A stretch of 57,310 nucleotides of DNA from a virus (lineage: Duplodnaviria > Caudoviricetes), in IMG/VR virus record IMGVR_UViG_3300043438_000704, positions 1-57,310 of that record; one strand, 5' to 3'. Positions 5,377 to 57,310 of the stretch are shown piece after piece. Numbering within the stretch: position 1 is the first letter of the stretch; each line of letters opens with the position of its first letter. The translations under genes and the position numbers were made by a program. The notes beneath the pieces are model-generated. The model made no database searches, was not told the DNA's origin, and worked only from the letters and a program-made list of their open reading frames with translations.

Positions 5377-5575
5377 TGAGTGAGAAATACGAGGCAGTGA
5401 TAGGGGGTTATACCTTCTTGATGAAGGATGACGGGGTAATTGAGGTGTGGTGTGGATTGGATAGCGAATATCCAGAATCCTTTATTTACACGAAAGATGG
5501 AAGCATTTCTGATCGGAAGGCATTCGAGATGGAAATTATGGATTGGATTCTTAAAAACTAGGATACAATCGACCC

Positions 5576-6292
5576 ATGACTAAAATCGAATTTACCGACG
5601 AACACCTTCGGGTGATGATGACTGCTTTGGAAGTGTATTCCAGATTGCGGGCTGGGCAGATCAGGATCGCTATTGATGAGGCGTTTCGGGATATGCACCT
5701 ATCTTGGAAAGAACTGGAATCCATTGAAGAATTTGTAAGAGATATTCTATATCCCAAACCCGTCGAACTGAAATATGATGGACATGGGGGTTATTATGAC
5801 CAATATGGATGCACATACGATGAAAACGGTGTGCGAGATACTGAAGTAACATGGGAAGAGAAGGAGCGTTTGAAGCGTTCTCAATTACATGGTAATTATG
5901 GGGTTTGTCACGAAGAGATGATCAAGAGTGGGGGAACCTTGGCATACGAAATCTATTCCACGCTGCGTCAATATGTCTCTCTGAAAAATAACGATGGATA
6001 CGAAGGTGTGGGGGTGAATTATCGTAGTCCTTTGCAAATCACCGAAGTTACCTTACCAGTGATTGAAGGATTTACAGCGGAGAAACACTTTCCCATCAAA
6101 GGAAAGTCAATTGTTGATAAATTGGATAAAGCCCAAGAAACCAAAGATTATTCCAAGGTTTGGGAAGTGGTTGGGGAATACTTGAAACGGAAATATCCTG
6201 AATTGGAAGGCTATTCTCAAGCAAGGATTGAGAAAGAGGAAAATCATTATGTGGTGATTGTGAAAGGAGCTAGAAAGAAAAAAGGTGAATAA
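5576..6292 (+). CDS. Hypothetical phage protein (238 aa)
   Basis: Starts exactly at the +1 of the junction element. Confidence 0.85.
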   Translation: MTKIEFTDEHLRVMMTALEVYSRLRAGQIRIAIDEAFRDMHLSWKELESIEEFVRDILYPKPVELKYDGHGGYYDQYGCTYDENGVRDTEVTWEEKERLKRSQLHGNYGVCHEEMIKSGGTLAYEIYSTLRQYVSLKNNDGYEGVGVNYRSPLQITEVTLPVIEGFTAEKHFPIKGKSIVDKLDKAQETKDYSKVWEVVGEYLKRKYPELEGYSQARIEKEENHYVVIVKGARKKKGE

Positions 6293-6692
6293 AAGAATTA
6301 TAATTTTAAGAGGAACCCAAAATTCTGGAAAATCTACAGTCGCAAAGCTGTTTGGAGAAAAATCAATAATCTGCTGTGCCGATGATTACTTCACGGACAA
6401 TTGGGGTAATTATAATTTTGATCCAAATCTTCTGGGTGTTGCACATAGAATCTGTCGGGAAAAATTCATCAATGCTTTGGATGATCCTGATATTGACACT
6501 ATTGTAGTCGCCAACACGAATGCGACTCAAAAGGACTTTCAATTTTACATTGACTCTGCGGAACAACATGGTAATATGGTATTCTCGTTGGTGGTAGAAC
6601 GCCGACATGATAACCACAACAATCATAACGTGCCGCAAGAGGCGATTGATCGCTGTGAACAGAATATTAAAAATAGCTTGAAATTGAAATGA
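6285..6692 (+). CDS. P-loop kinase (AAA_33 / polynucleotide kinase-like)
   Basis: Walker A GTQNSGKST, CADDYF, VVANTN, and HNVPQEAIDR lid region. Confidence 0.8.
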   Translation: MNKRIIILRGTQNSGKSTVAKLFGEKSIICCADDYFTDNWGNYNFDPNLLGVAHRICREKFINALDDPDIDTIVVANTNATQKDFQFYIDSAEQHGNMVFSLVVERRHDNHNNHNVPQEAIDRCEQNIKNSLKLK

Positions 6693-6860
6693 AAGAAAAA
6701 AGACTAACTAGATTCTATCTGGCATTTTTGGATAATCCTTTGAATACTATCGTAAAAACATTGGAAGAGCGGTTTCCCGAATATGAAAATTTCAGGTTTA
6801 AAATCAAAATAACTTTATCCACCAATGAAGTAATGGTGTTTGGAACAAAAAAGAAAAAAG

Positions 6861-7541
6861 ATGAATAATTTAAATCAAGATATTTACTTGGTGGGAGACA
6901 TCCACTCTGAATTTGATGCTCTATTCCGAAAGATAGCGCATTTGGAAATTGGTAATTGTTATCTGATTCATGTTGGGGACGGGGGTGAAGGATTTTTACC
7001 GGAATTCAAGCAAATGCGCCAATTTGAACATTATAACAATTTCTTCAAAAAACATAACATACAATATCTCAGTATTCGCGGAAATCACAGCGACCCCGCC
7101 TACTTCCAAGGACAAGTCAAGCTCTCCAATTTTGAGCTATTACCCGATTACACCTATCGGGAACTGAATGGTGAGCGTTTCCTATTTGTTGGGGGTGCTG
7201 TGAGTATTGATCGTCGTCTTCGTATTCCTCGCATGTCATGGTGGGAAGATGAAACATTTGTTTTGAAACCTGAATTGGTGGAGAAGGTGGATGTTTTGAT
7301 CAGCCATTCAGCACCCTATTGGATCGGTGATTTTGAAAAGAGCGGCATTGCCAGTTGGTGCGAGCAAGACCCCACACTATGGGCGGAATGCTCCAAGGAA
7401 CGGGAGGATATTGCCAAGCTGATTGATCTTTGCGGTTGTAAAAAGCATTGGTCTGGGCATTTCCACAAGTCATGCTTTGCATCTTATAATGGGTGTGATA
7501 GCCGAATTTTGGATATTTTGGAAATCATGGAACATAGATAA
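6861..7541 (+). CDS. Metallophosphoesterase
   Basis: Motifs GDIH, GDGG, RGNH, GGAVSID, SHSAP and GHFH. Confidence 0.88.
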   Translation: MNNLNQDIYLVGDIHSEFDALFRKIAHLEIGNCYLIHVGDGGEGFLPEFKQMRQFEHYNNFFKKHNIQYLSIRGNHSDPAYFQGQVKLSNFELLPDYTYRELNGERFLFVGGAVSIDRRLRIPRMSWWEDETFVLKPELVEKVDVLISHSAPYWIGDFEKSGIASWCEQDPTLWAECSKEREDIAKLIDLCGCKKHWSGHFHKSCFASYNGCDSRILDILEIMEHR

Positions 7542-7777
7542 TGAAAAAGATAATTCACGTTCATCAGGCTAAGATAAAATCTAATGCTAAAAATTCCCTA
7601 AACGAACCTGTCATCACTTGCAAGACTTACAAGAGCAATGACTATGCCCATGAAGTTGAGATAATTTCGGATGGTAAAGTGGTTGCCAAGGTGGTGTATC
7701 GACCAGACAAACCCCTTTCATGTGGAGCAAGAGTGTGGATCGAAACGGAGGAAGAAGTGAGACTTATTAAAAACTAG
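7541..7777 (+). CDS. Small hypothetical phage protein
   Basis: Coupled start; ends KN* inside the junction element. Confidence 0.75.
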   Translation: MKKIIHVHQAKIKSNAKNSLNEPVITCKTYKSNDYAHEVEIISDGKVVAKVVYRPDKPLSCGARVWIETEEEVRLIKN

Positions 7778-7791
7778 AATACAATACAAAT

Positions 7792-7956
7792 ATGAGTGAA
7801 AACAAAACAGATAAAACAGCATTTTGGACGGGTCTTGGACAAGGTATCGGAATCTTTTTGATTTGCCTTGGAATGGGAACATGCTCCGCTTTGGTTGAGG
7901 GACATATCAAAATTGGAAATCAAACACAGGAAAAACATGAAAATAACACTAAATGA
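7792..7956 (+). CDS. Small membrane protein (54 aa; below the ORF-track cutoff)
   Basis: ATG at the element's +1; MSENKTDKTAFWTGLGQGIGIFLICLGMGTCSALV... has a hydrophobic helix. Confidence 0.7.
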   Translation: MSENKTDKTAFWTGLGQGIGIFLICLGMGTCSALVEGHIKIGNQTQEKHENNTK

Positions 7957-8284: not shown

Positions 8285-8653
8285 ATGAAAACAATACTAA
8301 TACTACTACTGACAATTAACCTTGGGTTTTCCCAAGAATACGGAATTGCTTCCCATTACTCAATTCGCACGAATGGGGGGACGCACACGGCAAGTGGAAT
8401 CACTTTGCGGGATGATGCTTATATTACCGCCCATCGCACATTACCATTTGGAACTATCGTGAATGTCACTAATATTAGAAATGGGAAAAGCGTGAATGTT
8501 AAGGTGGTTGATCGAGGTCCACATATCAAGGGTAGGATTGTTGACCTTTCCCAAGCTGCTGCCCGTAAGCTTGGTTTCCTGAAAAACGGGATTACCAAGG
8601 TGCGGGTGGAAGTGGTTGAGATGGGGGATGGGAAGACACACTTTAAAAACTAG
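8285..8653 (+). CDS. rlpA: RlpA-like lytic transglycosylase (DPBB domain) with signal peptide
   Basis: Motifs GIASHY, TASG, AHRTLPFGT, VVDRGP and RIVDLSQAAARKLG. Confidence 0.9.
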   Translation: MKTILILLLTINLGFSQEYGIASHYSIRTNGGTHTASGITLRDDAYITAHRTLPFGTIVNVTNIRNGKSVNVKVVDRGPHIKGRIVDLSQAAARKLGFLKNGITKVRVEVVEMGDGKTHFKN

Positions 8654-8667
8654 AATACACTGCGGAT

Positions 8668-11579
8668 ATGGACAAACAATCAGAAATCACTTATGAGGAC
8701 ATGCGTAAATACCTTGTCCAAAGTATCAACACCAACGCTAGAGATATTTGGGAACTGGAAGATAAGCTAAGAAGTGAAAACCAACGGGTTGCAGATGGCA
8801 AGGAATCTATTGTTCGGGTGGTAAAAAGATTTGGAATCATGGGGGAAGAAGCTGGTCACGAATTACAAAGGATTGCTTATGATCTTGATCCTAAAAATAA
8901 GGAGAATAAAATCAACAGACTTATCACCGACGCACTTGTTTACGTTGATGCTGAGTATGAAAGAGGAAAATACGAAGGTCGCGATATGAAAACACTCTTC
9001 GGTGCGCTTTTTGAAATGATTGGAACAGAGGCATATGCCCGATTTGATGCTGCATATTCCCTAAGATAGAGAGATTAAAAGTATGCAAAAAATATACGTT
9101 TTAAAATATGGTGATGTTGGGCAGGATGGTGTCATTATGGAAGCATTTAAAACCAAAACATCCTTTCGCAAACATGTCCGTTTGGAATATCCAGACGCAA
9201 TCGGTAGAAATAGAGATAAACCAAACGAACTTTATTGGGAGTGGGGTTGTCATGGGGAACCCAATGGGGGGTGGATCATGGGAGAAGAAGTAGAATTACA
9301 TTAAAAATATGATAAAATTAACTAAAATAGACATTAATCCCAACAGTGGAGCGATTCAAGCTTCAACCATTGAGGAATACCGCACTGACCAAGAGCGTGG
9401 TACATGGGGTCAATGGTTTGAGGGCAAGTCTCCTCCTGTGGATTACTGGATTGTGGGAGAGCTTATTGGAGAAATCCAAGTCGGAAAGGCTATTCTCATT
9501 GACCGTTGGAATCGCAATGGGGTTGTGATTCGGGGAATCATGCATACATCTGAAGTGATGAAGCTTGAAGAGAATGATGGAGTAACCTATATCACAACCG
9601 CAAACAGTCTGTATAAGATGGAGCAAGTGGACGAGGAGGATGTTTTAAACTATGAAATGGGTTTGTTTAAAAACTAGAATACACTGATCACATGCAATTA
9701 AAATTCATATCAACAAAAGAGAAGTTACCGAAGAACGGGGAATACATTTTCGCTATCAAAACGGATCGGCAAATAATGTATAAAGATGCAGGAGAACCAG
9801 CATTCATCAAATGCGAATGGGCGTGGAATGATGGGGATGGGGGAACTTGTGGATGTAAAAAATCAGAATCATCCATTGATAACATGCCGAAAGGATACAA
9901 GTATCTGGATATCATAGATGGGAATGGGTATGTGATTTGGACAAGTGAAACAAATCCGGGTAATCCAAAAATCGAGCATTTTTGGTGGATGTCTCAGAAA
10001 GAATTCGATAAGATTTGGAAAAACGCGAAACATTGAACGAAGTATGAAATGGATGTCAATATTTGTGGAACCAGAACCATCCGGTATGGAATGGGAACCC
10101 CCGAATTACAAGCCAGAGGACTACACTTGCTTTGATTGTCCCCATAAGGATACCTGTGAATACGCTTGGGATCACTACAATACGAATGGCGATTGCCTTG
10201 CAATGAAATAAAAAATAGAACACAATAACTTCATGCACGAATTTATTAAAACAGATAATTGGCAATACATCTTTGACAATTACGAATCCACCTATCTTGA
10301 TGGGTTGAAAGGGAGTTTTCTGATCCGTAGCTGGAGAATTGATGAAAATAGCCTTCACGAAGGTCTTAATGACATGGCAAGAGCCTACCAGACTGCTCAA
10401 CGCCAAGACAAGGAATGGGACGAAAGGGTGTGGTTCCCTTTTCTGGATGAGATCAAGGCAAGGGCTGTTGATAACAAGGTGATTCTCCATGCCAAACCAA
10501 CCCATGAATATTCAGGAAAACAAGACCAATGGTGGGAATATACATATTCAAATACCAATCCTCGTTACGGGTGGGGATACTCCTTCAATTGGATTGAAGA
10601 ACCCGATGAGAAAATCAATCACGATTTGGGGCAGAAGCTTTATGAATTGGATCGCTATCAAAGGAAATTCGACCAGCGTGTGTTCATGCTTCAAAAGCTG
10701 CTTGAGAAGTATCTGTTGAAATATGTCTATCGCATCTATAATTATGAATGGCTTGACAAGAACCAATTCTCCGGTAAGCTGGTGAAAATCACCTTGCGGG
10801 GAGATGAGTATTGGTATCACATTACCACAAACAGAAACGGTGTGCCTGTATGGGAGAACTTCATCTGGCAATCAAATCAAACGGAGGAAATTAATTTATG
10901 AAAAAAATCAAAGTTAGGAAAAATTTGTCAGATCATCTATATGAACTGGAAGGTTCTCTGGATAAAGCCATTGAATATTTGAAAGACCTCAAGGGAAAAT
11001 ATTCCCAATACGAAAATCTTCACTTTGATGTTGATTATGATTGGGATAGCAAACAGCTTTACCTTTGGGGTGAGATTGATGAAACGGATGCTGAATATGA
11101 AGCACGACTTGGACGCGAAAAGATCGTTCAGGATCAGAATGATAAGAGAGATCGTGAGCATTATGAACGATTGAAAGCCAAATTTGAAAATGAAAAAGAA
11201 TAAATTAATTAAAATTCTACAGAATATGGAGGGGAATCCCGACATTAAGATTTGGAATGGTTACGCTGAAGATTGGCAGGATTTCAATCTTGTTGAACAG
11301 GAATTTGTTAAGGAGACGGAGGAATTTATTCGTTGGCGAATAGAAACCGATTGGAAATTTAGGAATGAAAATTGGACTATTCCACCGGATGTTCAGAGAG
11401 AACTTGATGTCATCATCGCCCGACAATTAAAAGAGCGGGAATGGGAATTTCAAAATCCATATTTTTCAGGGGAGGATGAAAAACGGCGATATGGAAAGAA
11501 TCGTAAGAAGGTGTTTCTAATCAACGCTAAAATGCGGGGCAAAAGCACGTTTGATCGCATGGGTGATATTGATTATTAA
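8668..11579 (+). CDS. Run of hypothetical genes (8668-9069, 9083-9304, 9309-9677, 9692-10036, ~10044-10211, 10233-10901, 10898-11203, 11184-11579)
   Basis: Head-to-tail + strand ORFs; several start at junction elements. Confidence 0.75.
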
Positions 11580-11600
11580 AAACTAGGTTACACTACGAAT

Positions 11601-12293
11601 ATGAACTACAAATTTTTAATGGATCAAGATGAGCTTGAAAGGTTTATTGACTGGCTACCAGACTTGGAAGAGCATGAAATATACTACTTGGCAGCGTTTA
11701 CAAGAAAAAAATACTGTTCAGACGACCAACATCCTTGGATCAAGGCGGATAAAAATCATTTGAAAAGATTTACGTCCACCAAAGAGCGTTTGGTATCCAA
11801 AATCAAACAATTGGAATGTCCTCTTGGTTCTTACACCATGAAAGGCAAAGGTGGGGGTGAATTTGTAGTTCCCCAAGAGACGCTTGTTTTGTATATCTCC
11901 CCAAATCCCCGCGATTTATGGAAAGCCACTATCCAAGGTGCAATTGATCTTATGAAAGTTGTGCAATGCCAAGGCAAGAACAGCAATCCCCATCAGGAGA
12001 TTCTATCCACCATCCAAAGGACTGCTTCCAAGAAAAGGATCGTCACGTTCGATGTGGATGAGAAGAGTCAGAACGTTCTGGATCGCTTTACGGATGTCTG
12101 TGGCAAGGCTGTGGACGTTGTGGAGACGCGAGGTGGTTATCACTTCCTAGTCCATCCCAAGGAGATGCCCAAGAATGAGAAATGGTATCAGACTCTATCG
12201 GAGGTTTCGGACGTAACTGGTGACGCATTACTCCCGGTTCCCGGCACATTTCAGGGATCGTTTGTCCCTCGTATGATCATCAACAATCATTAA
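11601..12293 (+). CDS. Hypothetical protein with AEP/prim-pol-like motifs
   Basis: TFDVD (DxD) and ETRGGYHFLV (GxH) motifs. Confidence 0.45.
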   Translation: MNYKFLMDQDELERFIDWLPDLEEHEIYYLAAFTRKKYCSDDQHPWIKADKNHLKRFTSTKERLVSKIKQLECPLGSYTMKGKGGGEFVVPQETLVLYISPNPRDLWKATIQGAIDLMKVVQCQGKNSNPHQEILSTIQRTASKKRIVTFDVDEKSQNVLDRFTDVCGKAVDVVETRGGYHFLVHPKEMPKNEKWYQTLSEVSDVTGDALLPVPGTFQGSFVPRMIINNH

Positions 12294-12548
12294 AATTATG
12301 CAAAAATTAGTATTGAGATATCATTGGTGCGTCCCCTATGAAGCGGAAGGGGATGTAATCCTTCCATTTGAATACGAATCCAAAGAACAAGCATTTGTGG
12401 ATTTCATGGAGCTACGAGAAGACGCTGAATGGGAATTTCAATTTTTGGGGCAAAGGTTTGATGTTGATGTTACTGAAGATACAGAATTCTTCACTTTGGA
12501 AGAATGGTTTGAAATATACAAGATTAAAAACTAGATTACAATGATCCC

Positions 12549-13007
12549 ATGAAAATTGAAATCACCACGAAGGAGAGACAAAAAATTCTCAGATTCTCCA
12601 CAAAAATAAAACAAAAATTTGAAGATGGGGAAGTTGAACCCATTCATAATTCAAAGGAATCCCAAGATTTCATTAAAGAATTTTTAAAGAGTCGGGGAAT
12701 CGATAAACCAAGGGTTTATGAACAAGGAATCTATGCTTTTGGTAATGTGGGGATGCACACCGACAATCTCTCCCCAAAATCCGCGATGACGATGTGTCTG
12801 TTGATTTCCGGTAGTGGTAAATTGTTCGCTTGGGATGGTAAAAAGGTGAACGAATATCGTATCAGTAAAGGAGATGGTGTTATTTTTGATTTCAATCTTC
12901 CCCACTCATTTGAAGCTGATAAAACATGCCAAGCATTTCTAGTGGACATTCCAAAAAAATATAAGAAGAACTTACAAAATGATAAATATGAAACTCCCAA
13001 ATTCTGA
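12549..13007 (+). CDS. Cupin / 2OG-Fe(II) oxygenase-like protein
   Basis: HTD...H metal triad (GMHTDN ... LPHSFEA). Confidence 0.6.
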   Translation: MKIEITTKERQKILRFSTKIKQKFEDGEVEPIHNSKESQDFIKEFLKSRGIDKPRVYEQGIYAFGNVGMHTDNLSPKSAMTMCLLISGSGKLFAWDGKKVNEYRISKGDGVIFDFNLPHSFEADKTCQAFLVDIPKKYKKNLQNDKYETPKF

Positions 13008-14067
13008 AGAATTTAATTTCAAAGATGTCACCATTACTGGAGATGAATGTTGGCTGATTACGCCAGATTCAATAAAATGCAAGTGGACGGAAGATACTCT
13101 AAAGTTCCGATCCATGATCATTCGTAAATCGGATCATCTCATCATTTCTAGATCGTTCCCAAAATTCTTCAATTACTCTGAGCAACCCGATTTGGATAAA
13201 TTTCCTCTGGATGAGCGATTTACTGCTTATGAAAAGCTGGATGGTTCCCTTGGAATCTTTGATTCATATAGAGGAGAACTTTTGGCTAGAACGAGGGGAA
13301 CTTCCAATCTACGTCAATTGGAGAATGGCCATGAATTGGATTTCTTATTGAAAAAATATAAAAAATTCTTTGATCATGTGATGAATGAGCCTGATTATAC
13401 GTTCCTCTGTGAATGGCAGACAAATAGTAATATAATTGTTGTTGGAGGATTTCCAGAACCGAAATTATCTTTAATTGGCATTATTCACAAGGAAACTGGA
13501 CTAATGTTCTCCCAAGAACATTTGGATGATTTGGCAAAAGACTTGGATATTCCAAGACCGGATAAATACCATTACGAATCAATTCAGGAATGTGTCCAAG
13601 ATGTGGAGATGTGGCGGGGGAAGGAAGGAGTGGTTTTGTATTCCGAAAGTGGTAAGATGCGTAAGCTGAAAGGTGAATGGTATCTGAGCCTTCATAAAAT
13701 TTTTACGGGAATGCGATCCCTTTCCAATATTCTGGATTTTTTCCTATCATCTCCAAGATTTGTTGAATATGGAGATTTTTATAATTACACTGTCCAACAT
13801 GTGGATTTTGAATTGGCTGAAAAAATCAAAGATGAAATGATACAAATCACCGAAGCATACGGTAAGTTCATCCATTCCGTCAACATCATTGAACGTGCCA
13901 TGGGATACATTTCCAAGCTGGAGACTCGTAAAGAGCAAGCATTGGCAATTCAGAAAGAGTGGAGTGAGTGGAGTTGGATGATTCCATGTGCATTTTCGTT
14001 GCTTGACAACAAGCCTTTAGATGATAAGCTGGTGAAGAAATCGATGGAGAAACTTTTAGGATTATGA
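12979..14067 (+). CDS. RNA ligase, T4 Rnl1-like
   Basis: Motifs FPKFFNY, YEKLDGSL (motif I), LCEW, EGVVL and KLKGEWYLSLHK. Confidence 0.85.
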   Translation: MINMKLPNSEEFNFKDVTITGDECWLITPDSIKCKWTEDTLKFRSMIIRKSDHLIISRSFPKFFNYSEQPDLDKFPLDERFTAYEKLDGSLGIFDSYRGELLARTRGTSNLRQLENGHELDFLLKKYKKFFDHVMNEPDYTFLCEWQTNSNIIVVGGFPEPKLSLIGIIHKETGLMFSQEHLDDLAKDLDIPRPDKYHYESIQECVQDVEMWRGKEGVVLYSESGKMRKLKGEWYLSLHKIFTGMRSLSNILDFFLSSPRFVEYGDFYNYTVQHVDFELAEKIKDEMIQITEAYGKFIHSVNIIERAMGYISKLETRKEQALAIQKEWSEWSWMIPCAFSLLDNKPLDDKLVKKSMEKLLGL

Positions 14068-46764: not shown

Positions 46765-47004
46765 ATGACAAACAAACTGAACTGCTGCGCCCATAACATC
46801 ACCAAGCCAACGAAACGCCCCCAACGACAACGTTTCACAATGCATGGGGATATTACACGGGTTCTGGATATGAATCGTAAAGGAATTGCTCTTCTTCGCA
46901 AGCGTAAGTTCACATGGACTCAAATCCACCAGTGCCTTCAAAAGATTGGTGTGGACGTTGATTACAACAATCTGTATCAATGGCAGGTTCGTAGGTTTCG
47001 CTAA
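46765..47004 (+). CDS. Small basic HTH-like protein
   Basis: LRKRKFTWTQIHQCLQKIGVDVDYNNLYQW; A/C-rich leader. Confidence 0.5.
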   Translation: MTNKLNCCAHNITKPTKRPQRQRFTMHGDITRVLDMNRKGIALLRKRKFTWTQIHQCLQKIGVDVDYNNLYQWQVRRFR

Positions 47005-47015
47005 TCGATATATCT

Positions 47016-47135
47016 TTCCCTTGGTTGCTTAGAGTTATCTCTGGTGTTGATAATTCTGAACAGCCAAGGGAATTCTCTTTCTCATAAACAAGCATAGCGG
47101 AAGCTCCCGCCCGATCCTGATATACGGTAATCGGG
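47016..47135 (+). terminator. Long imperfect hairpin (terminator or processing stem) followed by two short hairpins
   Basis: TTCCCTTGGTTG/CAGCCAAGGGAA plus TAGAGTTATC/GATAATTCTG, then a pyrimidine tract, GCGG/CCGC and CCGAT/ATCGG. Confidence 0.65.
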
Positions 47136-49301
47136 AACCTTTAAAAACTAGAATACAATAACGACATTACAAACGAATGAAAGATTATGATCTATATTCC
47201 ATTGAATGGACATATGAAGATGCGCTTCCCAAGGACTTATCCGATCTGGAATATGATCTGATGTTTGATAAGAGCGAGATTCAGGATGGTGTTCGCATGT
47301 TCCCCTATATCACGATCTATTCCAATGAGGATGGATCAAGCAAGCGCATCTATCTCTGTGTTTAAAAACTAGATCACAATACCAACATGAAAACAATCAC
47401 AAAACAAGAACTCATTGATTATATCAATTCCCAGCCGGATGATAAGAGGGTGGATATGAGGCAATGCTCGGTTCTTGGCAATTGTGGTTGTGTGATGGTT
47501 CAATATTCCAAGGAAATTCTTAATATCACCGATCCATTTTGGTGTGGATATCATGTAATTTATGTCAATAATTTTCCCGAATATGCATTGGGGGCGGACG
47601 ATAATATTGATGATATAATTGATGGCGATCATTGGGATGAAATCGAGACATACGCGGATGTTCGCAAGTTTCTTAAAAACTAGCCCATACTCCTACTATG
47701 AAGATCGTCAAACACACTCTGGAACATCTACACAAGGGAACGGATATGCTTGACCTTCCCGAATATTTTCGGGGAACGGAAAAGCAATGCAAGGGGATGA
47801 TGTCGCGCTTTGAATGGTGCAAGGATCAAAGCCTGTTCGGGGGATACTGGCGGGATGAGGATGGGGAATGCTACTATCTACTTCCATAAAAACTAAACGA
47901 TAATTACGACATGGTAAAAGCCACCTCAGAACAACTTGAAACACTCCGCAATATCTCAGTCGTAGCAGAGCGCGAAGGTTTCACGGAATCATCCAAGTGT
48001 GGATTTGTCAGCTATTCCAAAGCGAAAACCGGACAAGCCGATCAGGAAGAAGTGAGTGCAAGAATCCACAGCATCCGCGAAATTCTCCGCACATACAAAG
48101 GATCAATGTTCGCGGATGCAATCGCTTAAAAACTAAACCATAATACGCACATGGACAAGAAAACAAAATTCGCTTTGGATTATCACAGGGGATCATTTCA
48201 AATGTTTTTGAGGAATGGTAGATGGGGAACTTGTATGGATTGCCCCCGTGATTCTGAAGGTAATGGTTATCCTGAATTTTGTAGCAACACCGAGCGACAT
48301 GATCATCACCTAACTTTTGATGGATTGGTTGAAAATTATAAACACACATTGAATAGAGCTTGAATATGGACATGGAAAACATCAAGCCCTATGAGGACAT
48401 GACCGACGATGATCGTTGGCAAGCCATTGGTTCCGCCCAATACATTCTGGAGGATGTGAGTATGGAAAAGATGGCGGAAGTCTCAGGGTTGACCTTGGGG
48501 GTGATTTCAGCGGCATATAGGAACATCTTTCGCCATGTCAATGATGTGGAAGAACCGCGCCCGAAGAATCCGACAAAACCAAGACGCATTAAAAACTAGA
48601 ACACAATTACACTATGAGCGAACCATACAAGCTGATTGAAAAAGAATATACATGGGATGAATTCTATGATCTTCTCCAAGAGGGGGATCAATTGATTAGG
48701 ATTTACCAAAAGTATAATGAGAATTATACTTCAATCAGGGAATATGATTGGGAGCAAAGGCGGATTCATTTCTCTGATGGCAAGATAGAATTCTTCAATG
48801 GTTCTCATGTGGATTACAAATTTGAAAAACAATTCAACGAGAACATTCTTTATGGATTTGGATCATTCCATCTATACAGCCAAGTATTTGATACTATTGA
48901 ATTGGAGGAAACCGAAGAGGTTTGGTTGATGAATGGGATGGTTGAAGATAGACCTATTATTAAAAAATTGGAAACCTTCACTTTAAAGGAACGCGAAGTC
49001 AAAATCTACGGGGTGAAAAAATATGTTTAAGAAGATAACAGATTTTAATTCAAGTGATGAATATCTGGATTATTACAATCAAAGAAAAGAAGACTTTTCA
49101 AGTGTATATGAAATGAATTGTTATCTCGCCACCATGCGACACACCAAGGATTTTGTATCCAATATGGGAGACGAATTTTGTGATTCCTTGTATCAAACTT
49201 TGATCGAATATGGGAATGTTGAAGATTTTCTCAAACAAATCCAACATGAATATCTCACCAGACACGATAGAATCCTTTAAAAACTAGAACACAATCACAC
49301 C

Positions 49302-50063
49302 ATGACAAAGAACCAAGAAACAATCGCCAAAGCTTTCCGTCACAATTCAGGCAAGTCTTTCCTAGACTCTGGAGACTTCTACGGAAGGCATTATGACAAG
49401 CCGCCAATCTCCGATGAGCAACCGCTTATCAAGGTGCATGTTTATGGCAACGAGCCAAGCGCAACCATTGAAACCGCTCTTTTCCTTGCCGAAACATGCG
49501 AAGTGGATTTTGATATTCAAGAGCAATTTGAGGAATGGGCGGCATTGGAAGAGAATTCGGAACTCTCATGGTTTGAAGCGGGAAAAACCTTCGCAACCGA
49601 GGTGCTTGGTCTGACTCAGCTTGCAAGGGATAATACATATAACAATGAGAATGACTTATCTCAGGACTATGTATGGGAAGTATATGCTGCGGAAGATGGG
49701 GGGGATTGGATTTATCAGGATGACGCTTTGATGGTTGTTTATGCCCATACGGGATGCGATGTGCGGGGAGGTTATGCCTATCCTCTGTTCATGCGATGCC
49801 AAGGGGATTACAGCGTTCCATTCGACCTATGTGTGGAATGGCGTATCTCCGAAGGGACAAGGGATGGGGAGGAACTTAGTCAAGAGGAATGCCAAGAGCT
49901 TGATGAGCAATGGCAGATAGGTTACACTTCATGCCCATCCTATCAATTCTCCAAGGACATTGAGGAAGTCATTGAGGACTCGGCAACCGTGGATAGCGTG
50001 GAAGTTAAGCTGAAAAGCGGGGAGCTTGTCAAGGTCTATGCAAGCGCAAGGACTGATTGGTGA
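49302..50063 (+). CDS. Acidic hypothetical phage protein (253 aa)
   Basis: Starts at the junction-element +1; rich in D/E. Confidence 0.8.
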   Translation: MTKNQETIAKAFRHNSGKSFLDSGDFYGRHYDKPPISDEQPLIKVHVYGNEPSATIETALFLAETCEVDFDIQEQFEEWAALEENSELSWFEAGKTFATEVLGLTQLARDNTYNNENDLSQDYVWEVYAAEDGGDWIYQDDALMVVYAHTGCDVRGGYAYPLFMRCQGDYSVPFDLCVEWRISEGTRDGEELSQEECQELDEQWQIGYTSCPSYQFSKDIEEVIEDSATVDSVEVKLKSGELVKVYASARTDW

Positions 50064-53000
50064 TCTTAAAAACTAAAAGATAATCAAACCATGAAACTAT
50101 TCAAAAGAGAAACGACACAGGAAAAGATTGACCGATTGGAAATCAAACTTGCGGGGGCGTTGGCGGCGGATGAAACCTTTCGGGTTTTAATTAAAAGTAA
50201 AGTTCCCATGTATAGTGTGGAAAACTTTATTAAAAATCGTGCAAAGGTCGCAGAGATTCAAAAGGAACTTGAAATTTTAAAAACTAAAGGATAATACGAC
50301 CATGGGATGCGACACAAAAGGATATGTAGTTACCGACAACATTGATGTTCGGGAGATTGGTAAGCGAGTGCTTGCCGTAGTAAGAACGATTCAGGGGGAA
50401 GCTACAAGCACATTTGTAAAGAATGATAATGTATTTGTAAAATCTGTATATGATCCTGATTGGAATTACTATATCTTCCGTTTCAAGGATGGGGTTGACC
50501 AACGGCAAATGTTTGTCCATATGGACACGGAAGATTTCGAGGAATGCCACGGGGAACTTGGCAAGCGGGGAATCATTTTCTCTCTGGGAATGTGGGGGAA
50601 TAGCGTGGAACTGATTGGGAAATTTCTGGATGTTTTTCAGGACATGGGAGCTTGCTATATCCAAGAAAACGATTGTGGGGATGCTCCAGTTGCGTATAAA
50701 AACTAAACCATAATAAGCGCATGAGCGATGTTGATATCCAAGAGATGAAGCAGTGGTATTGGGAAGCTTCCGATGAGTGGATCAATGGGGTGTTGCTAAA
50801 GGCCAAAGAAAAGGCTCAATCCGCAAACAAATCAATTTTTATCATGTTTGATTATGGTTGTGCCTATTTTGAACATGATCCCGTGAATGTGAGAGACATC
50901 ATTCTGAGAATCGATCCATAAAAACTAAAGGATAATACGACCATGAACAAGATACCAAGGGAACAGATCGAAAAGCTTGCCAATCGCGCAAGGGTGAATG
51001 AAACCGCTGTGTGGAACTTTCTGGGAACCGCACACCATTGCGGAAGCATTCCCAATGCCCTGATGAATCTGGACATGGATGCCCGTATGTATGGGTGGAA
51101 CAAGGAAACCAAGCAAGCGATTCAGGATGGACTACTGAATAAAAACTAAAGCATAATCATAATCACACCATGACCACAACCAGAAAAATTATTGAATCAA
51201 TCGATCTTGAAAAACACGGGGAAAGTGTTCATGGGAGCGAAGACCTTGCTGGAGTATTCGGAATTTATAATTACGTCGAATTTGATGATCGTATCAAAAT
51301 GGTGTATGTTCGCCCCCATTATTGCACGGATTCTTGGGTGGGTGTTCGGGCATACTTCCTTGATGGGGAATTTGTCGCAATCTCCACACAAGTAGGTCGG
51401 AAATGGGATGAGGAATTCCAATTCGTATCAAACGAAGCTGCGATGAAAGTTAGGGACTATGTATTATCTTTCGTTGAACCGAAATATGATATCAAAATTG
51501 CCGATAAGCTGGATGAAGAGATTGATGATTTCTATACAGTTGAATATGCGGAACAGATTCTTCACAAGCATGGCATATATGAAGGGGAGCGTGTTGAAAT
51601 CAAGCTCAAAAGGAGAGATTGGAAAGATTTCCATACTACAACAATTGTTGGTAAGGATGGAAAAGAGCGGGATGTTGATAACAGGGATATCAAATTATCC
51701 TACGTTGATCTGTCTTAAAAACTAAACCACAATCCACACATGACAATCGAAACCGTAGGAATTGAAGAGATTGAAGGGGAGAAATACCACATTGGAACTC
51801 CCATGGAACATCTGACGATCAAGGAAGCCAAGGCATGGATCAAGGAACATATGTTTGACCCCGATTATTGGGACTACAAGGCGGAACGCAAGGGATTCTT
51901 TCAGGAAGTCAAGTTCATCCATATCCTGAAAAACGGGGAAGTCCATACGGAATACCTAACCAACTTCGCATAAAAACTAGAGGATAATAAAGCCATGAAA
52001 GACGAAATTATCACAAAGAAATTCGGAAAATACACCGTCACCTTGGAACTCTTTGAGGAAAGTGGTGAACAGCGTTCATACTGCGATATTGTGAGCAGCA
52101 ATGGGGGAGCATCTTCCCTTGGTTTTGCTCTGGATATGGGATACCTTGAGAAAACCAACGGATCGGAAGAAGAGATTTCTGAGGATTTTCTCTCCAAAAT
52201 TGAGGATTGGGCATTGGAGAACGGATATTAACATAAAAACTAAACCATAATCACACCATGAAAGAAATTACTGATACCGAACTCCTGATCATTCGTCACC
52301 TGAAACGTAATAATTCAAATGATAAGATTCTGAAAAGACTTGTGGGGAGATATTACGCTCTGTATCCTGAACATGTTGAAAGGGATGAAATTTTCCATTG
52401 TCTCTTTGATATCATTGAAAAGTTTGATCTTCTTTACTACACGGAAAAGGGTAAAGATATCCGTAACTTTTTCATCTACAAGGATTCTTTCATGGATGAT
52501 GATATTGATATGTTGGATATGTGGATTCAGAAAGCGAAATCTCGCATCCGGTTATCGGAAGTCGCCAAGTTCCCAAGATATCCTAAACCAGCGCGTTCGC
52601 GCAACCGTGATAAAAACTAAACGATAATCAAACCATGTCCTATCACACTGACAAACTCGACAAGCTAACGGAAGATGAGCGGGATGCCCTACTGGATTTC
52701 CTTGAGAACATCACGGAAGGCGATATTCTGATCATCGCCAACGAAATGCAGATGGATCAAGCCGACAAGCGAAAGCTTTGCCGTGCATTGGAGAACTTCC
52801 AAGAAGCTTAAAAACTAAACCATAATAAAGACCATGAACGAACACAAAATGTATGGAATGAAAGTCACACGGGATCAATTCGGACAATTGTTGGATGATT
52901 ATTCTGAAAGTGGATATACCAATTCATCTTATTCCGATATCATCATTGATCTTTTCAATGTGGAGGATCATAGAGCGGAATTTGCGGAACTCATTGGATT

Positions 53001-54055
53001 GCCTTTGGATAAATTGCCGGAAGAGGGATTGATGAATCTCTACCCATAAAAACTAGCCTACACTTACGACACAATGAAACACTACCTTGTTACACTTAAA
53101 GTCTTTATCAACAGCGTGGAAAAGTATATCCCATCCATCCGATTCGCGGGTTCTCCCGAAGAAGCGGGTCAAATGGCTCTGGAAGGGGAATGTCATGGGG
53201 AATTGGAGGAAGAGGTTGGCTATTTCTGGGATACGGGTGCAGAATGCGGATATGTTATCCAAAGCGTGGAGGAAGTCCCAGCATTTGGTGATGATGTGAT
53301 GAAGTTCCTGATGCACAATATTTAATATTATGAAAATTCTTTTAAACCAAGGTGAAATCAATGCTGCAATACTTGAATATCTATCAAGTAAGAATATGCA
53401 AGTGGGGTTGAATGAAATCCAATTGAAATGTGAATGGGATCAACAATACGATTCATATCCAACATCTTTCTATGCTGAGATTGATCTGAATCCGCAAGAT
53501 AAAAACTAGAATACACTGATACCACAATGACAACGAAACTTAAAAGCAACTGGATGGGAAGCAAAACCTCGTCACCCGTGAAATTCCGTGCCGCATCAAA
53601 TGGCAACGTATTCACACGTTCGGAGAAGCTGAAAATGATCTTCGCGGAAAAGGATCGCGCCCATCGCAAGGCGGAACGGGTCGAATTGATCCTTCAGGAG
53701 CGCAACAAGGCGGCGGAAGAGAAAGCCAAGCGGGAAAGGTTCTTCGCCGCGACAAACGCTCTTCAGGAGCATCCTGACGCAAAGGTGAGGCATTCCAAGA
53801 ACGGATTGTATATCCAACCGCGTGTAAATGGCGCATTCCAAGCCAAGATTGAACTCTAATATATAAAAATATGGAACCAATATATATCATATCCGTAACA
53901 TTTCATTTCATCTTCTGTGGAACTGTGGGATTTCTATGTGGATATCATATCCGTAACATATATCTAGGTATATTTTGTGCGGGTTCTCTGGCCATTGCAT
54001 CATACGCTTTACTAAACCATTTCGTATTGTCCAATTTCTGATTCATGGTGAAAGT

Positions 54056-54087
54056 CCCCTCTTCCTTGGTGGTTCTTGGGAGAGGGG
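54056..54087 (+). terminator. GC-rich hairpin before a junction element
   Basis: 10-bp stem CCCCTCTTCC/GGGAGAGGGG with a weak U-tract. Confidence 0.5.
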
Positions 54088-56571
54088 CAAATCTTTAAAA
54101 ACTAAAATAAAATAATAATATGTTCAGACACATTGGAGCTATCGTAGCGGGACTTTCATCTGCGCTTGTAACTGGAGGACACCTTTTCACTTCTCCCTAT
54201 CACTTTGGCGTTTTCATCGCATTCCTTTTTGTGGGGATGGTTTTGGGAGCCATTGTGGATTCCGTGCTTAAAAACTAGATCATAATCAGCGCATGGCTAA
54301 AACACCACAACAAAAGGAAGCTGCCGAACTATGGAGACGGGAGCAGCAAGAACTGGAGTGGATGGCAAAGGACAGGAGCAAGGCTTATTATCTTCCGAAA
54401 TATATCAGGGACATTGGCAAGACGGGGGATGTGGAATTGGACGAATTGGTTGATGAAATGCGGAAGATTGCCTATAAGATTGATGAACATTGGAGCAAGC
54501 AACCTTAAAAACTAGACCACAATACGGACATGAAAGCAACAATCGATCCCAAGGAAGTGACAGTGAGACATAGCATCCGGGAGGATGTGGGAAGGGAATT
54601 CCTGACCGTGGATTGTCCCGAAGGATGGGATGATGTGAAGAAGCTTGTGAAAAAGGTTCTTACGTTTGAGGGGCGGAAATTCGCTTACACGGGATGGAAT
54701 AGCGATAGGAACGAAGCTTTCTTCGCTCGCCCTCTGAATGGGGTGGAGATGGTTGCAAGGATTTCTTAAAAACTAAATCATAATCACAACATGACAAATA
54801 GATACTCAGTAGGATTCAAAGACCCTGAAATAAAGTGCGGGGTAACGGAAGATTATCCTTTGCTTGTGCCGATTGTTGATTATCGGATGTTTGGGTTCGG
54901 GGAAGTGATTGGGTTCGCTTTGGGGGAGTATGAGGCAACAACTTTAGTAGAGAAGTTGCAAGCCTTGGAAGATTTGAAAGATAAAGGTTTTAAGATTGAA
55001 CAATAACATGAACGAAATTCAAAAACGATTGGAATATCTTCGCGGGGAGATTGAAAAGGAATGTATCAGTTATACGGAAATTGTGGAACTGGAACACCTA
55101 CAAGAATATATCGATCCCGATGATGTTGTGCTTCTGGAATGGGCTGGAGTGCCTGAATAAAAACTAGACGATAATAACGACATGATATTTCCACAATACA
55201 AACAAGCAACATGTGATGCCACCTTTTCTGAAAAGGTGATGGGGAAATGGTATTGTTCATATTTTGAAGAACTTAATGGTCGGAATTTCGATAGGTATCT
55301 TCATCCTGATGGGTGGAAAAAATATGCTTATTGGTGGAATGCGAAAGAAGAGTGTGAAAATACATTCCAAAAATTTAATCAATCACATTTAAACGTGGAG
55401 GAATTTGAAGTTGACAATGCTATCGCAGAGGAAGAGTGGTATTCAGATTATTTGGAACAACAATTCTCTTAAAAACTAAAATAAGATTAACGCATATGGG
55501 AGCCGGATGTTACTACACACATAAATGCAATCGCCAAAAAGCTTGCTGGATTGACTTCAACCATTCCGATAATGAGGGATACGAGGAAGATGATTGGGAT
55601 ATTATGCGGATGTGGGAAGAGGATATCATTGACAACATTGAATGTCTGCTTGCCAAAATCGGGTATCGCAATATGCAAAACGGTCTTTGTAAGGTGGAGC
55701 TTGTGCCGACATATTACGGGGATGGTATGATCATCGACATATCTCCAGCAATGGAGGAATGGGAACCGTCTTACAATCTCTTTCTAGCCAATTTTGATCG
55801 TATGGAGGAAAACATCCTGAGATGCTTGCACAAGGCGGGATTTGAACTAAGGATTGCCACAAGCGGATACACTTCCGGCCAATACATCCCCAAGGGATGT
55901 GTTAAAAACTAAAGAATACTTCAAACATGAAACACAAAGCTGGTCTGTATCGGTTTGAGAGAAGTCCAGACTTGTTCGCCGCCATCAAGGGATGCCAAGG
56001 GGATACTCTGGAAATCCGTTTGACGGAAAAGGAAGCGAACACCCTATTTCAGAATCAGCTATTCCAAAGGCTGGGATTTGTGGGATGGGCATATTTGGGA
56101 GAATAAAAACTAAACAATAATAACAATATGAAAGATGTAATACACGATTTCGGAAAAAGTAGGGTTCGCCGTCTGGTGGATGGGAGCTATGTGGCGGAAG
56201 TTAATGTGGGGTGGATTTTTAAGTATTGGAAAGGCATTTCAAAATCCACTGGTTATCTGTGGGATCGCGATAGTTATAATTTCTGTAAAGTTCCAACAAA
56301 GGAACAAGCCTTGACATTGCTGGCAACACGTGGCTTTTAAAAACTAAGATAAGCTTTGACCATGCGACAATACAAAAACATCATGGATGGGTTGGAAACG
56401 ATGATTCAAGACATTGCCAAAAAAGAAAAAGGCAATCTTACGCTTGAATCCAAGCTTCATATGAAAGTTGTGAAAAAAGAACTTGCGGAGATGCGTCGGC
56501 AATTGATTCTTCTACACTTTGATATTGAGGACATTTACAACATCGCTTAAAAACTAGGATACCATTACGAC

Positions 56572-56940
56572 ATGAAACAAACACTTACAACTTACCAAGC
56601 GGCGCAACAACTCCATGACGACAAGGACGGGGGATGGACTTGGAACGGGGCGCAAGCCCTTGTGGAGTATCTGGAAGAGCTTGAAGCGGACATGGGGGAG
56701 GAAATCGAATTTGACAGGGTTGCCCTTCGCTGCGATTTTTCTGAGTATGAAAGCCTTGTGGAATGGGCGGAAGGATACTTTGGGGATGATGCTTGGAGAG
56801 GAGAATTGAACGCTGATATTGATGACGAATCCGGCAACTCCGAAGATATTGAGGATGTGGAGGAAAAGATTCGGGAATATATCCATGAACACGGGCAATT
56901 GATCGAATTCAACGGGGGGATCATCGTTTCATCGTTCTAA
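56572..56940 (+). CDS. Highly acidic small protein
   Basis: About 33 D/E versus 7 K/R in 122 aa (manual count). Confidence 0.8.
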   Translation: MKQTLTTYQAAQQLHDDKDGGWTWNGAQALVEYLEELEADMGEEIEFDRVALRCDFSEYESLVEWAEGYFGDDAWRGELNADIDDESGNSEDIEDVEEKIREYIHEHGQLIEFNGGIIVSSF

Positions 56941-57310
56941 TATGACAGGAAGAGCATTATTTGAATTGTCCCTGCTGGGATTACTAACTTGGGTATTGAT
57001 CGGAATGATTGCCCTTCAAATCTTTAAAAACTAGCGCAAAATAAGCTCATGCAATGGCAAATGATAGAAAAGGACAATCCCCTTGCGGTTCATGTAATAT
57101 TTGAATCCAAGGAAACCGGGGAAGCGTTTCTGAAAAACACGGTTCCCGATTATGTGGCAAGGAGTCTTTACATGGATAAGACCCTGACAGCCGAAAGCTT
57201 TGAGATAGTCCCAAGACCATTAAAAACTAAACGATAATCAGCGCATGAACAAATACCGGATCACTTACAAGGACTGCGGCGAAATCATCACGGAATATCG
57301 CAAGGGGGGG

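Follow-up and report, generated by a model that had tools for sequence, protein, structure and literature searches.

Along one strand of a 57,310-base stretch of uncultured viral DNA (IMG/VR record IMGVR_UViG_3300043438_000704; the whole stretch was analysed and is called the window below), a 27-nucleotide (nt) element recurs between small genes, beginning with a stop codon, ending with a start codon and, in most copies, containing the last codon of the open reading frame (ORF) upstream. The question raised by this element—here the ‘box’—is whether it was shaped as a plug-in gene-cassette joint, terminating any ORF placed before it and expressing any ORF placed behind it, as a sequence-only reading of the window had proposed, or whether its stop codons have another origin. 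Our answer, which we consider probable, is that the box serves as an early promoter of leaderless mRNAs and that its sequence, A/T-rich and invariant, became the default stop of the preceding gene under compaction, with an exchange function resembling that of the promoter-early stem-loop (PeSL) cassettes of T4-type phages as a side role. On this account the supply of stops looks like an incidental by-product of promoter sequence and compaction.

The box, its copies and the stops it supplies

The 5' block of the box, TAAAAACTAR, has 66 exact matches in the window, all on the + strand (first at 5552, last at 57221), whereas 100 shuffled sequences averaged 0.35 and never exceeded 3; three further copies with one mismatch (C7 to A; 10209, 32810 and 44969) bring the total to 69, and some 65 small genes have the box set directly against their start codon. 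Taking the T of the leading TAA as position 1 and running 27 nt to the end of the ATG, we see an aligned consensus of W-TAAAAACTA-R-A-n-y-A-Y-A-M-T-N5-C-ATG, with about 31 bits of information in positions 0–27; a logo of the 66 copies reveals neither conservation upstream of position 0 nor a conserved inverted repeat in or beside the box. T1 and the triplet T8-A9-R10 are invariant (66/66), as is T18, with A14 present in 65 copies and C24 in 49; 53 of the exact copies have the ATG at position 25 and seven have it at position 28.

Position 10 is linked to the bases that follow, G10 pairing with C15 in 35 copies and A10 with T15 in 16. Two subtypes emerge, which may represent two promoter classes or two sources: G10 with TACAAT, TACACT or CACAAT (44 copies, throughout the array, 5552–57034), and A10 with CATAAT or GATAAT (22 copies, from 44.8 kilobases (kb) on only, 44837–57230). 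As a separate observation, positions 1 and 25 share a frame, such that a -1 slip on the A-run would join an ORF ending in Lys-Asn (KN) in frame to its neighbour; the neighbours are unrelated.

To locate the upstream stops, each copy was assigned the longest of the ORFs open at a point 90 nt ahead of it, and the assignments were compared with a greedy gene set and with the raw ORF list. The leading TAA (positions 1–3) ends 32 upstream ORFs (31 in the greedy set, the 32nd being ORF 40556–40759); the TAR at positions 8–10, read as AAA-AAC-TAR and giving a C-terminal KN, ends 24 ORFs of at least 35 amino acids (aa), plus a doubtful 14-aa ORF at 38605; a single ORF ends in KK, at the variant copy 32810; and two ORFs read the third frame to stop on the TAA at 15–17 inside GATAAT, at 50294 and 57237. 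In this way 59–60 of the 69 copies are used as stops. The other 9–10 (18051, 38605, 43472, 44646, 45981, 47142, 50067, 52234, 54096 and 57025) carry no overlapping ORF: 18051 and 54096 follow hairpins with T runs, 38605 a tRNA-like fold, 47142 and 44646 structured stretches, and at 45981, 50067 and 52234 the upstream ORF has its own stop 3–6 nt before the box.

These counts bear out the observations from which the sequence-only reading set out. Its tally of 32 TAA, 25 KN, one KK, two third-frame and nine free copies becomes 32, 24–25, 1, 2 and 9–10 on recounting; the eleven KN ends that it named individually are all ORF ends in the raw list; and stops in two frames, sometimes three, are found in 66/66 copies, with a third-frame stop ahead of the ATG in 31/66. 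The frames are unequally used, upstream ORFs of the 69 copies falling 37:29:3 (chi-square p = 1e-6) with the third frame avoided, and usage drops as the number of residues that the box would add rises (0, 2, 5). Among the 114 copies of a complete 207-kb relative with direct terminal repeats (G003), the upstream stop lies at offset 0 in 53, 7 in 32, 14 in 1 and 17 in 1, and upstream of the box in 27.

The copies are as follows (numbers in brackets after a stop codon are box positions; ATG at position 25 unless noted).

5552–57247 (+): array of 69 joint copies (66 exact and 3 with one mismatch)
5552–5578 (+): joint; ORF 5376–5561, stop TAR (8–10), KN end; ATG 5576
7768–7794 (+): joint; ORF 7541–7777, stop TAR (8–10), KN end; ATG 7792
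8644–8670 (+): joint; ORF 8285–8653, stop TAR (8–10), KN end; ATG 8668
9668–9694 (+): joint; ORF 9309–9677, stop TAR (8–10), KN end; ATG 9692
10209–10235 (+): variant joint (C7 to A); ORF 10044–10211, stop TAA (1–3); ATG 10233
11577–11603 (+): joint; ORF 11190–11579, stop TAA (1–3); ATG 11601
12525–12551 (+): joint; ORF 12298–12534, stop TAR (8–10), KN end; ATG 12549
16186–16212 (+): joint; ORF 15938–16195, stop TAR (8–10), KN end; ATG 16210
18051–18077 (+): joint, no overlap; after strong hairpin with T run; ATG 18075
18396–18422 (+): joint; ORF 18075–18398, stop TAA (1–3); ATG 18420
22681–22707 (+): joint; ORF 22225–22683, stop TAA (1–3); ATG 22705
24803–24829 (+): joint; ORF 24332–24805, stop TAA (1–3); ATG 24827
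25261–25290 (+): joint; ORF 24827–25270, stop TAR (8–10), KN end; ATG 25288 (position 28)
26689–26718 (+): joint; ORF 26414–26698, stop TAR (8–10), KN end; ATG 26716 (position 28)
28448–28474 (+): joint; ORF 28019–28450, stop TAA (1–3); ATG 28472
29306–29332 (+): joint; ORF 28874–29308, stop TAA (1–3); ATG 29330
29944–29970 (+): joint; RNA-ligase-family ORF 29330–29953, stop TAR (8–10), KN end; ATG 29968
30232–30258 (+): joint; ORF 29968–30234, stop TAA (1–3); ATG 30256
32351–32380 (+): joint; ORF 32075–32353, stop TAA (1–3); ATG 32378 (position 28)
32810–32836 (+): variant joint (C7 to A); ORF 32583–32819, stop TAG (8–10), KK end; ATG 32834
33618–33644 (+): joint; ORF 33087–33620, stop TAA (1–3); ATG 33642
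35941–35967 (+): joint; ORF 35347–35943, stop TAA (1–3); ATG 35965; left end of a 668-base-pair (bp) segment missing in related locus L087
36627–36653 (+): joint; ORF 36496–36636, stop TAR (8–10), KN end; ATG 36651; right end of the segment missing in L087
37788–37814 (+): joint; ORF 37366–37797, stop TAR (8–10), KN end; ATG 37812
38605–38634 (+): joint; only a 14-aa ORF reaches TAR (8–10); after tRNA-like fold; ATG 38632 (position 28)
40532–40558 (+): joint; ORF 39468–40541, stop TAR (8–10), KN end; ATG 40556
40757–40786 (+): joint; ORF 40556–40759, stop TAA (1–3); ATG 40784 (position 28)
41499–41525 (+): joint; ORF 41242–41508, stop TAR (8–10), KN end; ATG 41523
42817–42843 (+): joint; ORF 42634–42819, stop TAA (1–3); ATG 42841
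43158–43184 (+): joint; ORF 42841–43167, stop TAR (8–10), KN end; ATG 43182
43472–43527 (+): joint with leader; upstream ORF ends 20 nt before; likely ATG 43525, about 30-nt A/C-rich leader
44646–44672 (+): joint, no overlap; upstream stop 89 nt before; after structured stretch; ATG 44670
44837–44863 (+): joint; ORF 44670–44846, stop TAA (8–10), KN end; ATG 44861
44969–44995 (+): variant joint (C7 to A); ORF 44861–44971, stop TAA (1–3); ATG 44993
45377–45386 (+): 5' box alone (no -10, no ATG at 25); ORF 45207–45386, stop TAA (8–10), KN end
45678–45704 (+): joint; ORF 45426–45680, stop TAA (1–3); ATG 45702
45981–46007 (+): joint; upstream ORF has own TGA 3 nt before box; ATG 46005
46509–46535 (+): joint; ORF 46005–46511, stop TAA (1–3); ATG 46533
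47142–47179 (+): joint, no overlap; after hairpins; ATG 47177 (11-nt leader)
47363–47389 (+): joint; ORF 47177–47365, stop TAA (1–3); ATG 47387
47674–47700 (+): joint; ORF 47387–47683, stop TAR (8–10), KN end; ATG 47698
47887–47913 (+): joint; ORF 47698–47889, stop TAA (1–3); ATG 47911
48127–48153 (+): joint; ORF 47911–48129, stop TAA (1–3); ATG 48151
48590–48616 (+): joint; ORF 48366–48599, stop TAR (8–10), KN end; ATG 48614
49278–49304 (+): joint; ORF 49023–49280, stop TAA (1–3); ATG 49302
50067–50093 (+): joint; upstream ORF has own TGA 6 nt before box; ATG 50091
50278–50304 (+): joint; ORF 50091–50294, third frame, stop TAA (15–17), LKTKG end; ATG 50302
50697–50723 (+): joint; ORF 50302–50706, stop TAA (8–10), KN end; ATG 50721
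50919–50945 (+): joint; ORF 50721–50921, stop TAA (1–3); ATG 50943
51140–51172 (+): joint; ORF 50943–51149, stop TAA (8–10), KN end; ATG 51170 (position 31)
51716–51742 (+): joint; ORF 51170–51718, stop TAA (1–3); ATG 51740
51971–51997 (+): joint; ORF 51740–51973, stop TAA (1–3); ATG 51995
52234–52260 (+): joint; upstream ORF has own TAA 5 nt before box; ATG 52258
52611–52637 (+): joint; ORF 52258–52620, stop TAA (8–10), KN end; ATG 52635
52809–52836 (+): joint; ORF 52635–52811, stop TAA (1–3); ATG 52834 (position 26)
53047–53076 (+): joint; ORF 52834–53049, stop TAA (1–3); ATG 53074 (position 28)
53500–53529 (+): joint; ORF 53330–53509, stop TAR (8–10), KN end; ATG 53527 (position 28)
54096–54122 (+): joint, no overlap; after strong G+C hairpin (T run); ATG 54120
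54269–54295 (+): joint; ORF 54120–54278, stop TAR (8–10), KN end; ATG 54293
54506–54532 (+): joint; ORF 54293–54508, stop TAA (1–3); ATG 54530
54767–54793 (+): joint; ORF 54530–54769, stop TAA (1–3); ATG 54791
55158–55184 (+): joint; ORF 55008–55160, stop TAA (1–3); ATG 55182
55470–55498 (+): joint; ORF 55182–55472, stop TAA (1–3); ATG 55496 (position 27)
55903–55929 (+): joint; ORF 55496–55912, stop TAA (8–10), KN end; ATG 55927
56104–56130 (+): joint; ORF 55927–56106, stop TAA (1–3); ATG 56128
56338–56364 (+): joint; ORF 56128–56340, stop TAA (1–3); ATG 56362
56548–56574 (+): joint; ORF 56362–56550, stop TAA (1–3); ATG 56572
57025–57051 (+): joint, no overlap; upstream stop 87 nt before; ATG 57049
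57221–57247 (+): joint; ORF 57049–57237, third frame, stop TAA (15–17), LKTKR end; ATG 57245

A putative leaderless promoter

In a -10 element of the sigma-70 type, the bases at -11 and -7 are flipped out. A14 and T18 of the box correspond to these two positions, with the bases between them free to vary, and T18 sits 7 nt before the A of the ATG; 7 nt is also the usual distance from T(-7) to the transcription start site, for which a pyrimidine-purine step is the preferred dinucleotide. The spacer between T18 and the ATG measures 6 nt in 53/66 copies, 41 of which have C-A at positions 24/25, and in the 13 copies with a displaced ATG a pyrimidine-purine step is retained at 24/25 in eight. Other expression signals are inconspicuous: between 40 and 57 kb of the window, canonical -35/-10 promoters (42 against 45.5 expected) and terminator-like sites (17 against 13.7) show no enrichment, the logo of 66 copies contains no Shine-Dalgarno site at box positions 19–24, and in G003 Shine-Dalgarno cores accompany 5/71 motif-led genes as against 14/70 and 11/142 in the other classes (background 0.12). 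What the box does present—a TANNNT close to the start codon and constant in its spacing, and no ribosome-binding site—is the combination by which promoters of leaderless genes are recognised. Given the absence of both a -35 element and a Shine-Dalgarno site, together with the -10-like bases and the C-A at the ATG, we read the box as a putative promoter without a -35 element, whose transcripts would start at the AUG as leaderless mRNAs.

In the mechanism that we propose, the box would act as an early-class promoter read by the host RNA polymerase, its parts being the invariant TAAAAACTAR at approximately -24 to -15, a TANNNT -10 element at -12 to -7 and a C(-1)/A(+1) start. With the start site coinciding with the A of the ATG, each gene so headed would be expressed from a leaderless mRNA devoid of a ribosome-binding site. 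Terminators being few, a box-led gene would also come to lie internally on read-through RNA, where a ribosome ending 14–21 nt before the AUG could re-initiate. An archaeal-type TATA box was rejected as an identity for the element, the invariant A(-11)/T(-7) pair and the T4 core genes of the lineage both speaking for a bacterial host polymerase.

One might instead place the function of the box wholly at the level of RNA, as an intercistronic signal that holds the terminating ribosome and hands it to an AUG 14–21 nt downstream, the stops being integral to it. Such coupling would suit the 59–60 of 69 copies inside which an ORF ends at a set distance, 14 or 21 nt, before the following ATG, the absence of Shine-Dalgarno sites from the box and of their enrichment in G003, and the ATGA or TAATG-type overlaps, typical of coupling, that are used at junctions without the motif. 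We nevertheless find it distinctly improbable. No ORF ends within 9–10 of the copies (27/114 in G003), and several of these directly follow terminator-like hairpins, so that a new transcript must begin there; the fixed A14 and T18, with free bases between them, and the C-A step describe a -10 element and start site, not a base-pairing signal; and copies 43472 and 47142 retain the box despite leaders of 30 and 11 nt, respectively.

A further possibility is that the promoter belongs to a phage-encoded or phage-modified polymerase—T7-like single-subunit, or acting through a MotA-like box—and produces a 6-nt leader instead of a leaderless message. The 18-nt conserved block does end 6 nt before the ATG, promoters of single-subunit polymerases are of similar length, and the box has no -35 element. 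Against this, no RNA polymerase gene is found among 147 G003 ORFs (at least 90 aa, 70–207 kb) or the 96 window ORFs; profiles for MotCF (the MotA C-terminal domain) and AsiA match 0/5 records, with control genomes silent too; and A(-11)/T(-7) with C-A at 24/25 fit a sigma-70-type holoenzyme. We regard this alternative as very improbable, and retain the reading of the box as a leaderless promoter for the host enzyme.

The late genes also seem, from their upstream sequence, to carry a late-type promoter at leaderless distance. In G003, TAAATA-N5-ATG occurs 48 times, as compared with 1–7 times for other spacings, and lies before core and late genes (loci L122–L129, 72–207 kb), and 26/142 core or late ORFs have TAAATA at exactly -11 to -6; the motif resembles the T4 late promoter. 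It would be possible to go further, and to suppose that the whole programme dispenses with ribosome-binding sites, early box and late TAAATA alike being leaderless, and that the early box was selected as a frame-tolerant stop and recombination patch, letting promoter-gene units pass from phage to phage while the genes on either side keep proper termination and expression; we think this unlikely, and hold in the same low regard its corollary, that stop, promoter and start would form one 27-nt module, a stem-loop-free, leaderless counterpart of PeSL.

Two sites deserve separate mention. The box copy at 43462–43527 is an exception to the leaderless arrangement, having a near-consensus -35-like TTGACT 16 nt before TACAAT, and a leader of about 30 nt ahead of a DUF932 gene. 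The window has a TAAATA-N5-ATG site of its own near 1761 (-), before a minus-strand ORF (about 1262–1747) that lies in a gap between plus-strand genes.

Should the start sites be confirmed, this T4-like lineage would express scores of its early, and apparently also late, genes as leaderless mRNAs, with promoters occupying all of the intergenic space—an extreme regulatory economy—and a simple sequence rule would become available for annotating starts and transcription units in many uncultured lake and marine phages.

Compaction, native C-termini and gene exchange

If the box were a joint that cuts short whatever is placed before it, proteins ending in KN should differ at their C-termini from homologues lacking the element, and it was this comparison that the sequence-only reading had proposed, naming native ends at the same position as the outcome that would speak against a joint. 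That outcome is what we see: motif-less orthologues end within 0–2 residues of their box-terminated counterparts (ITIK versus ITIKN, EIK versus EIKN, FKK versus FKN). In the family of the ORF starting at 35347, the last two residues are GE, QG, KN, NE or SE and the length is constant, whilst one pair of neighbouring genes is joined at offset 0 in locus L087 and at offset 7 in L105, the 7-nt indel leaving protein length unchanged. For the RNA-ligase-family protein at 29330–29953, which ends in NGFKN, an alignment of 71 rows (292 homologues found and 120 listed, of which the first 70 in id order that did not exceed 235 aa were used) has 34 rows with nothing past the last column of the window protein, 12 with one residue and 25 with 2–17. 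Judging from these alignments, the upstream C-termini are native, neither truncated nor replaced.

The stop bases themselves are invariant in all copies, although the TAA is used in only 32 and the TAR in about 25, which argues that the constraint upon them does not come from their use as stops. Junctions without the motif are equally tight: 63/91 have at most 4 nt from stop to ATG, mostly in ATGA or TAATG-type overlaps. With no spacer at any junction and a promoter to be placed in between, stopping inside the promoter is the tightest arrangement, and compaction, which the sequence-only reading had itself offered as an alternative, fits better than a joint. The late motif provides a control. 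In G003, 45 TAAATA-N5-ATG sites precede a real gene; at 15 of them an ORF on the same strand lies close upstream, and in 10 of these 15 cases it stops on a TAA within the motif.

The box, A/T-rich and invariant, closes two of the three frames to read-through. Spacers would have been driven to near zero by deletion pressure, or because, with no Shine-Dalgarno site, a terminating ribosome was needed close to the next AUG; upstream ORFs would then have been trimmed or have slid until their native C-termini abutted the box or overlapped it by two codons. An A/T-rich, unreadable promoter would in this way provide a default stop for the preceding gene, and it warns against inferring design from overlaps.

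Exchange between related phages was followed through chained alignments of the window with related loci, which gave 176 breakpoint clusters: 59 at exact-motif junctions, one at a variant junction, 55 at motif-less junctions and 61 within genes. Calling an indel clean when one side had 100 bp or more and the other no more than 30 bp, we obtained 54 distinct events, with the motif at both ends in 13, at one end in 14 and at neither in 27; the motif-free events are equally precise, and the missing or added segment starts with the motif in 22/54, matching the share of motif junctions overall (63/155). In the indels with the motif at both ends a single copy stays, its variable core sometimes matching the left copy and sometimes the right; in addition, L089 and L105 share an upstream gene and an identical 24-nt box and then continue into different downstream genes. 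Among 353 different junctions in all, drawn from the window, from G003 and from the loci, cores were near-identical (at most 2/15 differences) in 14/77 pairs with the same upstream and different downstream genes and in 59/209 with the same downstream and different upstream genes, as against 809/57,865 unrelated pairs, and the motif was present in 98/139 contexts of homologues of motif-led genes versus 18/211 for motif-less genes, although neither core-pair nor context counts are phylogenetically independent. Where a neighbour had changed, the motif was found in 81/121 cases on the 5' side and in 56/111 on the 3' side, counts that are likewise not phylogenetically independent. The box travels with its downstream gene more often than not. 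Exchange takes place at and inside the box, but the box is neither necessary nor clearly over-used for clean gain and loss. In our scheme the repeated box would serve as a short homology patch through which promoter-gene units might be deleted, inserted or swapped between related phages, with gene gain and loss also proceeding independently of it.

That lack of phylogenetic independence is one of several points that weigh against our reading. Breakpoints occur at 46/58 motif junctions versus 47/86 motif-less ones (odds ratio 2.8, variants pooled; p = 0.006), a moderate enrichment by which the box is not neutral for exchange, and the motif-less class is itself diluted by some spurious small ORFs in the greedy set. 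The restriction of position 10 to G or A (66/66) is also expected under selection for stops, but it co-varies with the -10 subtype. A promoter lacking both a -35 element and a TGn extended -10 requires a recogniser of the upstream box, and the MotCF and AsiA profiles, mute in the records and in the control genomes alike, supply no candidate. Finally, what the sequences show directly is the make-up of the box, the counts, the pattern of conservation, the native C-termini, the map of indels and the genomic setting; promoter activity, a transcription start on the first base of the ATG, translation of leaderless mRNAs, re-initiation and the recombination mechanism are inferred.

How, then, does the proposal of a universal joint fare, in which selection gave the box its stops in two or three frames and so allowed any cassette to be inserted after any ORF? 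Much of what prompted it stands: the two-frame stops in 66/66 copies and third-frame stop in 31/66, a position 10 that is never other than G or A, the use of 59–60 of the 69 copies as stops and, with regard to exchange, the 13/54 clean indels flanked by the motif on both sides, the enrichment of breakpoints at motif junctions that the sequence-only reading had asked to see mapped, and crossovers on either side of the variable core. What the results do not favour is selection of the box as a joint. The C-termini are native; half of the clean indels (27/54) are motif-free with the same precision; segments begin with the motif no more often than its share of junctions; joining is frame-dependent, with the third frame used in 3/69 copies; the stop bases are just as invariant in copies that make no use of them; and a different, late-type motif gives the same stop overlap. 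We consider a selected joint unlikely, and favour the promoter with incidental stops.

Known systems, the host phage and neighbouring features

Short elements fused to start codons are found elsewhere, in the poxvirus late promoter TAAATG and in start-associated sequences of mycobacteriophages; in the poxvirus motif a TAA abuts the ATG. The polymerases and hosts are different, and we claim no homology. T4 middle (MotA) promoters differ from the box in sequence and in position, the MotA box being centred at -30 and ours near -20, and integron attC joints differ in having the inverted-repeat structure that the box lacks; no integrase was found among the 96 window ORFs of at least 75 aa, the sole mobile-element match being a TnpB-like gene. 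In the Thermus phage phiYS40, a TANNNT next to the ORF reportedly heads leaderless genes. In Deinococcus, experiment shows that TANNNT a few bp before an ORF drives leaderless genes (PMC12340547). The box shares with the Deinococcus-Thermus type a TANNNT at set spacing before the start codon, the lack of a ribosome-binding site and independence of a -35 element, and differs in its extra invariant 10-nt block, in its setting (a T4-like phage of about 40% G+C) and in having both an early and a late-type motif placed at leaderless distance.

The closest known system is the PeSL cassettes of T4-type phages (Arbiol et al. 2010, PMC2839356; Comeau et al. 2014, PMC4122927), and as a means of exchange the box may work much as they do. 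As these papers describe them, PeSLs are, like the box, a repeated early promoter before small ORFans in the hyperplastic regions of T4-like genomes and run up to the start codon of the gene behind them. They mark sites at which related phages differ by insertion, deletion or replacement, and deletion between two copies leaves one, sometimes chimeric, with crossovers between -10 and ATG (PMC2839356). PeSL copies also recombine with one another to give mini-circles. The hyperplastic setting and the association with indels are found for the box also (Gp23 in 4/5 related records, confinement to the 0–72 kb arm, 13/54 indels, 46/58 junctions). Unlike PeSL as there described, the box has an invariant block at about -24 to -15 in place of a -35 hexamer, no stem-loop or terminator part (few copies follow hairpins), and no Shine-Dalgarno site, its ATG lying at the predicted transcription start. 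Because three defining features—the -35/-10 pair, the stem-loop and the Shine-Dalgarno site—are lacking, we do not class it as a PeSL. The stop of the upstream ORF inside the element is a feature of the box, and no such overlap is described in the passages of PMC2839356 that were examined, so that PeSLs may or may not share it. The box widens the PeSL idea, that of a repeated promoter through which modules are exchanged, to an element without stem-loop, -35 or Shine-Dalgarno. A search of a limited literature library, for the 9-mer with ‘phage’ or for leaderless T4-like promoters, found no published account of the box.

The virus record is coextensive with the window and, at 57,310 bases and 40% G+C, is an estimated 28% of a genome. 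Scans against PHROG (96 ORFs) and Pfam (12 ORFs) identify three RNA-ligase-family proteins, several metallophosphoesterases, a thioredoxin-fold protein, a KaiC/RecA-like ATPase and many ORFans; the window is an accessory, early-type portion of a large phage. More than 115 stretches among the IMG/VR matches listed contain a 16-nt piece of the box, many of them in contigs of 120–207 kb, and in 4/5 such records there is a gene for a major capsid protein of the Gp23 type, with only about 34% identity to cyanophage Gp23. The nearest isolates by RNA ligase and by gp23 are less than 35% identical, and a near-identity search of window positions 20000–32000 against a phage collection gave zero matches. 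In G003 the box copies (114 forward and one reverse) are restricted to 0–72 kb, with five more at 150–170 kb; the rest holds the T4 core, with gp23, portal, prohead protease, gp55-like late sigma, clamp loader, UvsX, gp41, primase, gp32, terminase and ribonucleotide reductase. With the box restricted to one arm and the T4 core elsewhere, the box marks one temporal or positional class of genes: the host of the element is an uncultured T4-like phage dependent on host polymerase, and the box marks its early arm.

Several features of the window lie outside these questions. For one early region, the set of RNA-repair-type genes is unusually large, with three of the RNA-ligase family (12979–14067, 29330–29953 and 33814–34773) and three metallophosphoesterase or phosphoesterase genes (3494–4573, 6861–7541 and 16620–17267). 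ARAGORN and Rfam scans of the window called no tRNA or structured RNA; a tRNA-like fold can be drawn at 38495–38604, directly before joint copy 38605, with an acceptor-like stem, a GGTTCGATTCC T-arm and about 45 nt of extra mid-sequence. The only long minus-strand gene, at 19077–20168 (-), encodes the 363-aa TnpB-like protein with a Cas12f1-like TNB domain (70.8 bits), and the segment 19062–20256 that contains it is missing in a 90%-identical locus (L031) and looks like an insertion of the insertion-sequence type. Another locus (L042, 98–99% identical) has about 1.6 kb of extra DNA (its positions 843–2469) inside the ATPase gene 30256–31215, at window positions 30437–30464; identity falls to 86% just downstream of the extra DNA, which could be an intron or a homing-endonuclease insertion.

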